IMG/VR virus record: IMGVR_UViG_2695420485_000001
DNA from: a virus
Lineage: Duplodnaviria > Heunggongvirae > Uroviricota > Caudoviricetes
Reading direction: 5' to 3' (one strand)
DNA: 10,884 nucleotides
Shown: piece by piece, positions 8,091-10,884 of the stretch
Position numbering within the stretch: position 1 is the stretch's first letter
Layout of the letters: every line of letters begins with the position of its first letter
The notes under the pieces: model-generated
What the model saw: the letters and a program-made list of their open reading frames with translations, nothing else
What the model was told of the DNA's origin: nothing
The model's database searches: none
Program-made: the position numbers and the translations under genes

Positions 8091-8758
8091 ATATCTACGA
8101 AAGAATTGATGGCAGCAAATACCGAAATATTTGGGTAGTTGGCGATCTGCACGGATGCTACACGAACCTGATGAAAAAACTGGAGACGATAGGATTCGAC
8201 ACCAAAAAAGACCTGCTTATCTCGGTGGGCGATTTGGTTGATCGCGGTACAGAGAACGTAGAATGCCTGGAATTAATCACATTCCCCTGGTTCAGAGCTG
8301 TACGTGGAAACCATGAGCAAATGATGATTGATGGCTTATCAGAGCGTGGAAACGTCAATCACTGGATGCTTAATGGCGGTGGCTGGTTCTTTAATCTCGA
8401 TTACGACAAAGAAATTCTGGCTAAAGCTCTTGCCCATAAAGCAGATGAACTTCCGTTAATCATCGAACTGGTGAGCAAAGATAAAAAATATGTCATCTGC
8501 CACGCCGATTATCCTTGTGACGAATACGAGTTTGGAAAGCCAGTTGATCATCAGCAGGTAATCTGGAACCGAGAACGAATCAGCAACTCACAAGACGGGA
8601 TCGTGAAAGAAATTAAAGGCGCGGACACGTTCATCTTTGGTCATACGCCAGCAGTGAAACCGCTCAAATTTGCCAACCAGATGTATATCGATACCGGCGC
8701 AGTGTTCTGCGGAAAGCTCACATTGATTCAGGTACAGGGAGAAGGCGCGTGGGCATAA
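8087..8758 (+). CDS. ninI: NinI Ser/Thr protein phosphatase (lambda PPase), 223 aa
   Basis: Calcineurin-like metallophosphatase motifs GDLHG, GDLVDRG, GNHE; near-identical to lambda phosphatase as recalled. ATGA overlap with the ninG stop. Confidence 0.93.
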
Positions 8759-9237
8759 GAGAACTAAACCTCACCAAAGAACAGCATGAGTGGCTGAATG
8801 GCTGGCTTGAACTGTGGGGCGCATGGGTTTATTCAGGTCGTCTGGAAAAGCGCATGAGCAGCGTAATAGCGAAGTTCATGGAGAGCGTAGAGCCGGGAAG
8901 AGTTATGACAAGACCAATGTGCAATGATGATGATGGAATGTTGATTTCTCAGGTCGTCGATTCCGTCATGTACATTGACAAGAAAGCCTTTGGCATCCTC
9001 CTCAGCTACTACGCTCATGGTTCTTCCAGGCACGCCATTGCATCTTACTATCATCGCGTCGCAAGACCTCGCAAGATGTTATGCCGGGGCGGCGGGCGCA
9101 TTCAAAAACCATCGCTCGCAACCTGTCGACGGGAAGTTGACGAAATCCTTAATGCCTCGTTGTTTATGATTTACCCGGTTCTGGATAGTGCGTTTAAAAA
9201 CCGGAAACGTGTAGAGAAAATTAAACATGTAGCATAG
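8749..9237 (+). CDS. Q: Late-gene antiterminator Q of the non-lambda (phage 82/21, DLP12 QuuD-like) family, 162 aa
   Basis: Occupies the Q slot between ninI and the PR'/tRNA region. Shares WGAW and P-x-C-x-DDD-x-M-I motifs with DLP12 QuuD as recalled; not similar to lambda Q. Likely GTG start at 8749 preceded by GGAGAAGG. Confidence 0.65.
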
Positions 9238-9243
9238 AACGTG

Positions 9244-9272
9244 TTGACATCATTGAGCAAATGAGCAACACT
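9244..9272 (+). promoter_or_regulatory. Candidate late promoter PR' (-35 TTGACA at 9244-9249; -10 uncertain, AACACT at 9267-9272)
   Basis: Consensus -35 immediately after the Q stop, in the position expected for PR'/qut. The -10 is weak, so the transcription start is uncertain. Confidence 0.35.
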
Positions 9273-9282
9273 ATTGGCATAA

Positions 9283-9326
9283 GCTGCCGTTAGTGACTCT
9301 TAAGTTGCAACGGTGGCTTTTTTATT
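9283..9326 (+). terminator. Hairpin plus U-tract just downstream of the PR' candidate (tR'-like, or the Q-modifiable pause/terminator)
   Basis: 9-bp stem gctgccgtt (9283-9291) / aacggtggc (9309-9317) with two G-U pairs and a 17-nt loop containing the palindrome GTTGCAAC, followed by TTTTTTATTT. Confidence 0.45.
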
Positions 9327-9327
9327 T

Positions 9328-9402
9328 GGGTCAGTCGTATAAAGGTCATTACGGAAGGCTGTTAACCTTCTTATCGTGGTTCGAGTCCACGCTGTCCCGC
9401 CA
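9328..9402 (+). tRNA. tRNA-like gene, 75 nt, anticodon loop CUGUUAA (GUU, Asn-type); one U-U mismatch in the acceptor stem
   Basis: Manual cloverleaf: acceptor gggtcag/ctgtccc (6 of 7 paired), D-arm gtat-aaaggtca-ttac, anticodon stem gaagg/ccttc, T-arm cgtgg-ttcgagt-ccacg, discriminator G, encoded CCA. Confidence 0.55.
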
Positions 9403-9407
9403 AACAT

Positions 9408-9483
9408 GCTGGTTTAGCTCCAATGGTAGAGCAACTGACTTGTAATCATCAGGTCGCCAGTTCGATTCCGGTAGCCGGCACCA
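9408..9483 (+). tRNA. tRNA-Thr-like gene, 76 nt, anticodon UGU (loop CUUGUAA); weakened anticodon stem and one T-stem mismatch
   Basis: Resembles E. coli tRNA-Thr(UGU) as recalled (GAGCAACTGACTTGTAATCA...AGGTC...CCAGTTCGATTCCGGTAG...CACCA). Acceptor gctggtt/agccggc includes two G-U pairs. Only 3 of 5 anticodon-stem pairs form (tcatc instead of tcagt). Confidence 0.6.
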
Positions 9484-9486
9484 TAT

Positions 9487-9561
9487 GCGGGTACCGTATA
9501 ATGGCTATTACCTCAGCCTTCCAGTCTGATGATGCGGGTTCGATTCCCGCTACCCGCTCCA
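9487..9561 (+). tRNA. tRNA-like gene, 75 nt, anticodon loop CUUCCAG (UCC, Gly-type by manual fold); C at position 8 and a C-U mismatch closing the anticodon stem
   Basis: Perfect 7-bp acceptor gcgggta/tacccgc, D-arm gtat-aatggcta-ttac (same architecture as the first tRNA-like gene), T-arm gcggg-ttcgatt-cccgc, encoded CCA. Confidence 0.5.
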
Positions 9562-9573
9562 GATTTATTATCA

Positions 9574-9598
9574 GGCTCGCTTCGGCGGGCTTTTTTTG
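9574..9598 (+). terminator. Rho-independent terminator after the tRNA cluster
   Basis: gctcgc ttcg gcgggc, a 6-bp stem with one G-U, then TTTTTTT. Confidence 0.7.
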
Positions 9599-9649
9599 TA
9601 TCTGCGTTACACCATTAACTAATAAATCGAGTGCTTATCAGGAGGCTAT

Positions 9650-9874
9650 GTGAAAAAGCTGATGGTGACGATTGGTCCGTTCGAAACAGAAGTTAGTTTT
9701 CGTGTCGTTCAGGGGGAGAGTGTACTTGTTGAAGATGTATTTCATGGAAAATCAACAGGTCCTTATGTAAAAGAATATTTTGTCGACGCCACGGATGAAA
9801 ATATTGAGGTGGTGTACGATTCCGTCAATCACCCTAATTTGATCATTAAGGCAAAATTGAAACCACTTTATTGA
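9650..9874 (+). CDS. Hypothetical small protein, 74 aa
   Basis: AGGAGG at 9640-9645, GTG start at 9650 with short 4-nt spacing; alternative ATG at 9662 is far from the SD. No family recognised. Located between the tRNA cluster and the downstream late region. Confidence 0.5.
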   Translation: MKKLMVTIGPFETEVSFRVVQGESVLVEDVFHGKSTGPYVKEYFVDATDENIEVVYDSVNHPNLIIKAKLKPLY

Positions 9875-9926
9875 TCTGAGCGGGAGCAATCATAAAATAT
9901 CTCTGGGTACCCATAAGGAGATAAAT

Positions 9927-10136
9927 ATGTTTGTTGCTGAAGGGGTAATGGAAGATAAGGACAACAAAGGATGTGTTAAAGGTTGGGCTGTGGTAAGAAA
10001 CTCGCCATGGCATCTTGTTGGGGTTTTTGCGACAGAGGAAGACGCGGAAATGGAAGCAAGAAAGACGGGAGATGAGTACGAGGTTCACTATGGCTCGCAT
10101 CGAACAGGAAGTGATGATTTTGTCTGGGGGGAGTAA
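9927..10136 (+). CDS. Hypothetical small acidic protein, 69 aa
   Basis: Strong AAGGAG Shine-Dalgarno 7 nt before the ATG at 9927. Followed by a terminator. No family recognised. Confidence 0.6.
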   Translation: MFVAEGVMEDKDNKGCVKGWAVVRNSPWHLVGVFATEEDAEMEARKTGDEYEVHYGSHRTGSDDFVWGE

Positions 10137-10169
10137 CAGTCGTTTAACCCCAGAATAATCCCGTAACTG

Positions 10170-10195
10170 AGGTCGCTATTGGCGGCCTTTTTTTG
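10170..10195 (+). terminator. Rho-independent terminator after the two small ORFs
   Basis: ggtcgc tattg gcggcc stem-loop followed by TTTTTTT; near-duplicate of the 9574-9598 terminator and its downstream motif. Confidence 0.7.
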
Positions 10196-10326
10196 TATCC
10201 GCGCCACGCCCGGCGCATATCAACCACAGAGCCTTTCGGGGGTGAGCTTACGGAGTGGTCAGTGTGACTTTCTCTGTGGGCAGATCGCTCCCGGGCGTTG
10301 GCTCACCCACCCAAAGGAACGTCACG

Positions 10327-10758
10327 ATGTTTGGTATTTTTGGTAAAAAAGCCCGCCGAGCGGCAGTGGAAATTAAAAAGTTTGAGAAACGTGATCTGGC
10401 ACAGGCGGTTATTAATGCTGCCTATCTGGTGGCCTATGCAGATGGTGAATGTGAGGCTTCAGAGAAAGCGAAGATCGAGCAGGTCTTGCGTAACCAGCCT
10501 GCGTTGTCCGCGTTTACGTCAGAAATTAATGCGATTAGCGCAACCATTATCGGTCAGCTGGATACGAACTTTAAAACTGGTCGTCGAGCGGCATTGCGTG
10601 AAATTGAAGATGTGAAACACGATACGCGTGAAGCGGAAGATGTGCTGGATGTGGCGGTGGCCATTGCGGAGGCAGACGGCGAAATTGAGCCGGAAGAGCG
10701 CAAGGTGCTGGAAGAGATTGCCGGTGTTCTGGGTCTTCGTCTGGAGAATCACCTGTGA
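10327..10758 (+). CDS. TerB-like (tellurite-resistance TerB family) domain protein, 143 aa
   Basis: From the ATG at 10327 (MFGIFGKKARRAAVEIKK...); the track ORF begins at an upstream alternative start. Two VA-x-ADG-E acidic repeats (LVAYADGECEASEKAKIE and VAIAEADGEIEPEERKVLEEIAGVLG) typical of TerB. Confidence 0.65.
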   Translation: MFGIFGKKARRAAVEIKKFEKRDLAQAVINAAYLVAYADGECEASEKAKIEQVLRNQPALSAFTSEINAISATIIGQLDTNFKTGRRAALREIEDVKHDTREAEDVLDVAVAIAEADGEIEPEERKVLEEIAGVLGLRLENHL

Positions 10759-10884
10759 CGGTAAAACTGCGCCTGGCTGTGGCTGCACTCCTGCTGTTTC
10801 TGGTGGTGATGGTGGATTTCACCAGCAGAATCATGTCGGTGCTGGCGGATGGGGTGCTGGTCTGCGGCATTGTGGTATTGCTGT
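10755..10884 (+). CDS. 5' part of a membrane protein (VTVKLRLAVAALLLFLVVMVDFTSRIMSVLADGVLVCGIVVLL...), continues beyond the window
   Basis: GTG at 10755 overlaps the TerB-like stop (GTGA), suggesting translational coupling. Hydrophobic reading frame with no stop before the window end. Absent from the ORF track because it is open-ended. Confidence 0.45.
   Translation, partial: MTVKLRLAVAALLLFLVVMVDFTSRIMSVLADGVLVCGIVVLL

Follow-up and report, generated by a model that had tools for sequence, protein, structure and literature searches.

A probable two-gene moron in the Shiga toxin cargo slot of a lambdoid Escherichia coli prophage

Lambdoid phages reportedly carry morons, and their mosaicism is said to involve short boundary or linker sequences, as in the nin region of P22, as well as relaxed recombination by Red/Rad52-like recombinases. 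The best-known cargo slot of these phages lies downstream of the late promoter PR'. For Sp5, Tree et al. (2014, PMC4104026) describe the sequence downstream of PR' as a site of moron insertion, occupied there by stx2, and in lysogens the phage tRNAs are transcribed from a promoter situated between tR' and stx2AB (Sy et al. 2020, PMC7547250). Here we analysed a tailed-phage sequence of 10,884 nucleotides (IMG/VR record IMGVR_UViG_2695420485_000001, referred to below as the window), in which two small genes, orf1 and orf2, lie between two terminators, T1 and T2, downstream of the antiterminator gene Q and a tRNA cluster; the window features given below by coordinates are on the plus strand unless stated otherwise. 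We consider positions 9607-10203 to be, with good probability, a moron, that is, an optional and self-contained two-gene cassette with its own terminator T2, residing in the cargo slot downstream of PR' and the tRNAs.

One of the closest described systems is the PR' moron site of the Sp5/933W type with its stx2AB genes. As at that site, the block is extra DNA that separates two sequences found side by side in a close relative, it lies between Q, PR' and the tRNAs on one side and the lysis genes on the other, and it has intrinsic terminators at its borders and a lower G+C content; its left joint is identical to that of stx2AB to the nucleotide. In contrast to the stx2AB morons, its cargo consists of two uncharacterised predicted cytoplasmic proteins and no toxin, and no promoter was found before orf1. 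The convergent Hfq-binding small RNAs (sRNAs) of the Sp5/933W-type site are situated further downstream, outside the window, and not in the block. The locus also resembles the lambdoid boundary or linker sequences in having a patch of 15-50 nt (terminator plus tail) at module junctions between otherwise unrelated neighbours, but here the patch functions as a predicted terminator and occurs twice in direct orientation, so that both loss and gain are possible. Two further relatives are the homologous pair mEp237_060/061 (37% identical for orf1 and 65% for orf2) and an open reading frame (ORF) after Rz in Stx1a, Stx2a and Stx2c phages and H-19B, which is 41% identical to orf1 and represents the orf1 family only. 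Both are late-region accessory genes annotated as hypothetical, like those of the block, but they differ in position, being located after the lysis cassette. Read in this way, the block is a textbook-style moron with uncharacterised cargo, and the shared stx2AB joint and the recurring tails described below are tidy and would not surprise a specialist.

The 597-bp block and the cargo slot

The 597-bp block (9607-10203) comprises a leader, orf1, a spacer, orf2 and T2; since T1 and T2 have a common tail, the boundaries of the insertion or deletion are movable within the repeat by a few bases. The preliminary description of this DNA had proposed a comparison of related prophages, and this comparison revealed the same flanks without the block, and with one terminator copy, in JLK-2012, a phage from E. 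coli O55:H7, and in a prophage of E. coli O157:H7 F3113. JLK-2012 shares Q, the three tRNAs and terB (tciA) with the window, and it matches the query in two pieces; in the alignment the block is absent from JLK-2012 and present in O26:H11 11368. The single terminator of JLK-2012, CAGGCTCGCTTCGGCGGGCTTTTTTTGTATCTGCG, equals T1, and the next bases, CCACGCCCGGCGCATATC..., are those found after T2 in the window. The O157:H7 F3113 prophage, which has a different Q and tRNA Ile-Arg, possesses an empty junction like that of JLK-2012. At both empty sites the T1 stem and its ...GTATCTGCG tail are joined straight to CCACGCC..., the post-T2 sequence of the window, and the right flank (the terB leader and terB) follows T1 directly in the relatives devoid of the block. 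The terB leader (10204-10326) is identical across the window, JLK-2012, O26 11368 and O157 F3113. In O26:H11 11368 the block lies between T1-type and T2-type terminators, and it was thereby found behind two tRNA sets and Q types, namely Asn-Thr-Gly with a phage-21-type Q in the window and Ile-Arg-Arg with another Q in O26. By these alignments, presence or absence of the block is polymorphic in at least two backbone contexts, with one terminator remaining at the empty sites.

The block interior was detected in 110 of 5,426 complete E. coli genomes (~2%), in all cases on the chromosome, with 93 of the matches covering at least 80% of the query. The carriers are mostly non-O157 E. coli that produce Shiga toxin (STEC); the serotyped strains among the matches listed belong mostly to O26, O145, O111 and O103, with one O157. 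Two partial copies that were examined adjoin transposase genes of the IS3 insertion sequence family. The empty junction was spanned by the first 6 of 40 evenly spaced ranks among the 5,426 E. coli records, and these figures suggest that empty junctions are present in several hundred genomes and are several-fold commoner than filled ones. The base composition of the block differs modestly from that of its neighbours (42.3% G+C, with 39.1% for orf1, vs 48.3% for Q and 50.2% for terB).

The preliminary description had placed the two genes in the position of the toxin genes of Shiga toxin (Stx) phages, and this placement proved to be exact, as the T1 end is, to the nucleotide, also the left joint for stx2A. 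In an Stx2a phage, CAGGCTCGCTTTTGCGGGCCTTTTTTATATCTGCG is the sequence of the terminator that follows the second tRNA-Arg, and directly at its end the stx2A leader starts. The T1-type terminator of the Stx2a phage ends in ...ATATCTGCG, and Stx2a phage LC567840 runs ...GCGGGCCTTTTTTATATCTGCG, followed by the stx2A leader. We scanned IMG/VR for the T1 stem and tail and classed the next bases in 120 contigs among the matches listed. The T1 end ...TATCTGCG was followed by the terB leader (CCACGCC... and close variants) in 63 of these contigs, by the stx2A leader in 36, by the block (TTACACC...) in 19 and by another sequence in one. The divergence of the listed contigs right after ...TATCTGCG identifies the T1 end as the common left joint of the cargo slot, and the block and stx2AB are found, in these alignments, to occupy the same nucleotide position.

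This left junction lies at the end of the terminator that follows the tRNAs downstream of Q and PR'. Positions 9240-9485 are 92% identical to the PR'-qut-terminator-tRNA region of phage 21, a resemblance that places the block just downstream of a predicted Q-dependent late promoter PR'. The tRNA promoter active in lysogens (PMC7547250) suggests a role for T1 in closing the tRNA unit. On the other side of the slot, the post-T2 sequence of a Salmonella prophage (ACCGGGAGGCACCCGGCACC..., locus L013, 4223-4340) recurs downstream of stx2B in the Stx2a phage (locus L009, 4545-4575), where its copy is located near the region of the described convergent anti-sRNAs. The slot may thus have a shared joint at its right edge as well. 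One IMG/VR contig (L243) and 18 similar ones contain a terminator of the T1/T2 family (GGCTCGCTGCGGCGGGCCTTTTTTATATCCGCG) in a context without tRNAs. The right flank of the L243 type agrees with the terB leader over no more than ~19 nt at its start (CCACGTCCGGCGCACATCA), beyond which the two differ, and this suggests a conserved joint unit reaching ~20 nt past the tail.

The terminators and the module in other genomes

T1, the resident terminator after the tRNAs (9573-9606), consists of a hairpin (9573-9592), a U-tract to 9597 and the tail GTATCTGCG to 9606; the cargo slot has its left joint at the final base of this tail. T2, at the 3' end of the cassette (10169-10203), has a hairpin (10169-10189), a U-tract and the tail GTATCCGCG to 10203. 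The T1 stem has 8 pairs and a UUCG loop and the T2 stem has 9 pairs, each hairpin being directly followed by a run of seven T; both stems contain five G-C pairs. They are the only terminator-like sites on the plus strand within 8700-10884, and their predicted RNA folding energies are -11.9 kcal/mol for T1 (z -2.6) and -12.7 kcal/mol for T2 (z -2.2). Both are thus predicted to be good intrinsic terminators, and the terminator scan and the folding agreed with the positions given for them in the preliminary description.

The two terminators form a direct repeat (9584-9613 and 10181-10210; 83% identity over 30 nt) with a spacing of 597. The shared core GGCGGSCTTTTTTTGTATCYGCG matched the window only twice, at 9584-9606 and 10181-10203, and had no matches in 200 dinucleotide-preserving shuffles with two mismatches allowed. 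Hand alignment of the full 33-nt units gave 29 identical columns of 34, with three substitutions and two single-base indels; the two indels take out one C-G pair, so that stem pairing is kept, and both stems retain the same U-G wobble. The claim that the two terminators are near-identical over ~30 nt thus held for the U-tract and the tail and was slightly overstated for the stem. By its sequence features, T2 belongs to the same terminator family as T1, with a YTCGC-loop-GCGGR stem, the conserved U-G wobble, a U-tract and a RTATCYG tail. Target-site duplication was considered as the origin of the repeat and rejected, as T1 and T2 differ at ~15% of positions while their flanks are nearly identical between strains, and as the T2 stem type is common to modules in other genera.

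The two genes travel together well beyond this slot. An orf1 homologue, identified with a hidden Markov model, stands immediately upstream of an orf2 homologue (58-100% identical) in ~80 of 84 loci from Enterobacterales and viral contigs, and the carriers also include phages of Yersinia and relatives. The position of the module varies, being before the holin gene in Salmonella and Xenorhabdus and after Rz in mEp237 and an Erwiniaceae genome, and in the Enterobacterales phage loci it is always near the lysis genes. Judged from 66 distinct downstream sequences, most modules in Enterobacterales and viral contigs end with a hairpin and a T-run ~20-60 nt after the orf2 stop. The T2 stem type (GGTCGC...GCGGCC) accompanies the module in Salmonella and Xenorhabdus, and the tail of T2 repeats that of T1. 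In a Salmonella prophage, tRNA-Arg, T1, the block and T2 are followed, after ...GTATCC, by ACCGGGAGGCACCC... and the holin gene, without terB; T2 stays with the genes when the right flank changes, and hence it belongs to the cassette. Xenorhabdus modules (orf2 60-71% identical) end in GGTCGCTTAGGCGGCCTTTTTTT or GGGTCGCAAATGCGGCC..., which are of the T2 stem type, and one of them carries the tail CGTATCTGC. A second lineage (L105) has the tail TTTTTTATTGCGCCT on both sides of the module, in terminators with different stems, and on sequence grounds it represents an independent repeat of the duplicated-tail pattern of the window. Taken together, these comparisons point to a related terminator family that marks the module borders in these late regions.

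Each family is also found apart from the other. H-19B and Stx1a, Stx2a and Stx2c phages contain the 41% identical orf1 homologue, which overlaps the Rz end, without an orf2 nearby. Distant orf2 relatives (39-56% identity over the best aligned segment) occur in Pseudomonas phages and other proteobacteria among unrelated genes; the neighbours of those in Pseudomonas, Azotobacter, Ralstonia and others were heterogeneous and included no informative partner. In Stx2a phage LC567840 (locus L007, 6001-6225) the 74-aa orf1 homologue starts within the last Rz codons (overlapping ATGA), and in many Stx phages this post-Rz homologue is annotated as hypothetical or is unannotated. A Xenorhabdus prophage (locus L010, 6891-7133) has a gene of the Acb2/Tad1-hairpin family, an anti-CBASS/Thoeris sponge, directly after an Rz-like lysis gene. 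This gene and the orf1-orf2 module share one late region, which shows that the neighbourhood hosts anti-defence cargo.

The encoded proteins and the orf2 leader

Gene orf1 (9650-9874; 74 aa; phrog_2571) starts with GTG and has a Shine-Dalgarno (SD) sequence AGGAGG at 9640-9645, 4 nt upstream, whereas orf2 (9927-10136; 69 aa; phrog_4280) starts with ATG and has the SD sequence AAGGAG 6 nt upstream. They are the only two plausible genes between T1 and T2, and the RefSeq annotation of near-identical prophages contains the same two coding sequences, so that the ORF list and RefSeq both corroborate the two small ORFs (74 and 69 aa) first reported to stand alone between the terminators. An ATG-TGA mini-ORF (9648-9653) overlaps the GTG start of orf1 (ctATGTGaaa); in other lineages orf1 starts with ATG.

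The orf1 product is acidic (pI 5.2) and that of orf2 very acidic (pI 4.7, net charge about -8). Inspection of both sequences by eye identified no hydrophobic N-terminus, signal peptide or membrane segment, and the products are thus predicted to be small, acidic and cytoplasmic. AlphaFold2 predicted a six-stranded beta-sandwich for orf1 (predicted local distance difference test score 88.5) and a beta-beta-beta-alpha-beta-beta unit for orf2 (85.7). Searches with these predicted folds returned no structural neighbours (for orf2, nothing below E 0.2 in BFVD), and neither predicted structure contains a DNA-binding fold. The orf2 family has the invariant motifs SPWHL and YGSHRxGSDDF, with 21 columns invariant across the family, and the orf1 family is very small, with 11 representatives at E<1e-3 among 1.84 billion clusters. 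The confident predicted folds, the conservation of the ORFs with invariant motifs and the SD sites indicate that orf1 and orf2 are real genes. Codon differences between the window and O26, which are small in number, comprise eight non-synonymous and two synonymous changes in orf2 and three of each in orf1, and the surface of the orf2 protein seems free to change.

Neither protein had been recognisable in the preliminary description, and the database scans agreed with it: Pfam, NCBIfam, PADLOC and PHROGs gave only PHROGs of unknown function and a sub-threshold match to DUF7336, and PDB sequence profiles gave nothing. The defence models of PADLOC-DB v2 produced no match at E<=1 for either protein, and no toxin or antitoxin family was matched in Pfam, NCBIfam, PADLOC or PDB. 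Of the marks of a secreted toxin, Shiga-like/AB5 or other (a signal peptide, toxin homology or a toxin fold), none was found. The longer relatives examined for domain fusions had no Pfam domain, and a literature search by the RefSeq and locus identifiers of the two genes returned no paper. Overall, these sequence and model-based searches yielded no evidence for a new toxin, a toxin-antitoxin (TA) pair or a known defence system.

The orf2 SD sequence, noted as strong in the preliminary description, was found to be AAGGAG set inside a conserved, covarying inverted repeat (9898-9923). This 26-nt stretch before the orf2 start reads UAUCUCUGGGUACCCAUAAGGAGAUA and has the arms UAUCUCU and AGGAGAUA around the palindrome GGGUACCC, with the SD sequence (9915-9920) in its 3' arm. 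More than 30 distinct leaders retain the motif, while the remaining spacer is variable. In an alignment of 29 leader sequences, for which the structure was proposed by hand, 87% of cells pair and five pairs are changed on both sides. The pair beside the SD alternates between C-G and U-G (15:14), and the inner palindrome switches between GGGTACCC and GGTTAACC. The observed pairing and covariation values were reached by only 0-1 of 500 shuffles. The U-G alternation beside the SD favours an RNA hairpin over a DNA operator, and sequestration of the orf2 SD by this putative hairpin is likely. Just upstream of the repeat, at 9871-9898, is the promoter-like sequence TTGATC-16-TAAAAT, which matches the consensus at 9 of 12 positions.

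Origin and setting of the cassette

If the block is a moron, the shared terminator sequence of 15-30 nt (15-50 nt for the terminator family as a whole) would act as a short homology patch where co-linear lambdoid genomes recombine. In keeping with the relaxed recombination known from lambdoid phages, homologous recombination of this relaxed type, by Red/Rad52-type or host systems, would lead to cargo being gained, lost or exchanged, and empty sites would end up with a single terminator copy but filled sites with two. In a lysogen, both terminators would stop RNA polymerase unmodified by Q, with T1 ending the tRNA unit and stray transcripts and T2 insulating terB and the lysis genes from cassette transcripts. 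After induction, Q-modified polymerase from PR' would read through tR', T1 and T2, and orf1 and orf2, like Stx2, would thus be produced along with the late genes. The inverted repeat holding the orf2 SD sequence would probably damp or gate translation of this gene.

Several observations weigh against this picture in whole or in part. Recombination at the terminator is deduced from the positions of the junctions, and the suggestion made below for protein function is drawn from size, charge, location and the lack of matches alone. The consensus scan detected no sigma-70-like promoter between T1 and orf1, the sequence at 9871-9898 being the only candidate. Thermodynamically, the hairpin of the orf2 leader is weak (-6.8 kcal/mol, z -0.7), and RNAalifold returned no consensus structure for the orf2 leaders. 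The stems of T1 and T2 may lack common ancestry, as GC-rich hairpins with U-tracts may resemble each other by convergence. Finally, 26 viral contigs contain tRNA-Arg, the T1 stem and the T2 tail allele (C, GTATCCGCG), followed by the terB leader. Empty sites with the T1 tail allele (T) are common, as in JLK-2012 and O157, and those with the C allele could be either the product of a deletion between T1 and T2 or the allele into which the block originally recombined. The T/C polymorphism in the tail was tried as a polariser of insertion vs deletion and proved indecisive, since both alleles are present at empty sites.

The 26 C-allele contigs are the expected product of a crossover inside the shared T-run/GTATC core, and would also fit a history in which the block is ancestral here and only deletion, through recombination or slippage between T1 and T2, removes the 597 bp and leaves a hybrid terminator; the 23-nt direct repeat, with 21 identities and a spacing of 597 bp, makes a good substrate for it. 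We nevertheless consider this history rather unlikely: the empty sites are several-fold commoner than the filled ones and, in JLK-2012 and O157, carry the T1 tail allele itself; the T1 end is also joined to the unrelated stx2A cargo, so that the slot is older than the block; and the T2 stem type and the two genes form a module in other genera and hence have a history outside this site. Deletion may occur too, yet it is compatible with an original acquisition. A convergent likeness of T1 and T2, with cassette boundaries unrelated to these terminators, would be in line with the quite different terminator stems at the ends of modules from other lineages, and many intrinsic terminators resemble GCC-CGC-tetraloop-GCG-GGC followed by Ts. 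This explanation is improbable in the extreme, given that the identity runs 9 nt beyond the U-tract, where termination constrains little, in a motif not expected by chance, that the empty-site junction falls exactly at the tail end in independent contexts, the 120 listed contigs arguing against scattered junctions, and that the stems share the same U-G wobble and differ by a compensated base-pair indel. The unrelated cargo in the slot and the life of the module elsewhere lead us to conclude that the block was acquired here at some point, and later losses via the T1/T2 repeat are also likely. From the initial proposal of a moron cassette inserted at a terminator repeat, the optional block and the joint at the terminator tail were thus retained, whereas the event between the repeats may have been an insertion or a deletion.

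As to the cargo, late-region genes of prophages often encode TA or defence systems, and orf1 and orf2 could be such a toxin-antitoxin, abortive-infection or other defence pair: they are small, adjacent, co-oriented and kept together in ~80 loci, TA pairs (HicAB, ParDE) are located nearby in the Salmonella locus, and orf2 has a non-synonymous to synonymous ratio of 8:2 between close relatives. However, TA operons are normally autoregulated from their own promoter and none was found upstream of orf1; the two families are also met separately, orf1 behind Rz in Stx phages and orf2 relatives in Pseudomonas phages; and no PADLOC, Pfam or NCBIfam toxin, antitoxin or defence match, no DNA-binding fold and no structural neighbour were obtained, which makes a defence pair quite unlikely. 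We tentatively suggest that the products could act as accessory factors in late infection, binding a component of the host or of a rival phage, rather than as toxins or parts of the virion or lysis machinery. A separate and rather remote possibility is a new late-expressed anti-defence or host-takeover pair, with orf2 gated by the SD-hiding hairpin. As a conserved two-gene module with expected late co-expression, orf1-orf2 is a reasonable candidate for functional screening.

For the slot itself, the moron interpretation means that the place of the Shiga toxin 2 genes serves cargo in general and is bounded on its left by the terminator that follows the phage tRNAs, and that terminator-sized repeats mark the points of cargo exchange. 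This is of use for the annotation of STEC prophages and for thinking about the movement of stx between phage backbones. A more speculative idea, to which we attach very little weight, is that the terminator family (U-G wobble hairpin, U-tract and RTATCYGCG tail) is a dedicated cassette-exchange site of lambdoid late regions, whose hairpin form a recombination function of the phage or host could recognise, in loose analogy to integron attC. If true, it would explain the joining of stx2AB, the terB unit and orf1-orf2 at the same nucleotide, as well as the duplicated terminator tail around the module in L105.

By gene content, the window corresponds to the early-right part and the Q region of a lambdoid prophage of E. 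coli. Positions 9240-10330 have full-length matches at 99.5-99.9% identity in three complete E. coli genomes. The RefSeq gene order in these relatives begins with nin-region genes (NinB, NinE, NinG and NinH among them), a Ser/Thr phosphatase and Q, continues with tRNA-Asn, tRNA-Thr, tRNA-Gly, the two hypothetical proteins, a TerB-family protein and a DUF3927 protein, and ends with a SASA/NanS-type esterase, a holin, a lysozyme, a lysis protein in the usual place of Rz and the terminase. The phage-21-type Q gene is located at 8749-9237. The tRNA cluster (9328-9561), downstream of Q and the PR'/tR' region and closed by T1, encodes tRNA Asn-GUU (9328-9402), Thr-UGU (9408-9480) and Gly-UCC (9487-9561), with Rfam scores of 55, 49 and 49 bits, respectively. 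The Asn and Gly tRNAs are supported by Rfam and the annotation of the relatives, and the Thr tRNA, in addition to its Rfam score, is annotated in the RefSeq relatives and JLK-2012; there are thus three tRNAs upstream of the block and not two, ARAGORN having overlooked tRNA-Thr between Asn and Gly. The Rfam scan of 9100-10884 identified nothing besides these three tRNAs.

To the right of the block, the 123-nt leader (10204-10326) precedes the terB/tciA gene (10327-10758; Pfam TerB 2.9e-16; phrog_632). The leader holds an inverted repeat (10240-10252 and 10296-10308) and has a predicted folding energy of -50 kcal/mol, yet this is no better than that of shuffled sequences (z -1.2). A perfect 15-nt inverted repeat connects the 3' half of T1 (9582-9596, TCGGCGGGCTTTTTT) with terB codons 7-11 (10345-10359, AAAAAAGCCCGCCGA). 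The terB copy scores as terminator-like on the minus strand (10366-10353), and the repeat may be due to chance or may represent a convergent terminator inside the start of terB.

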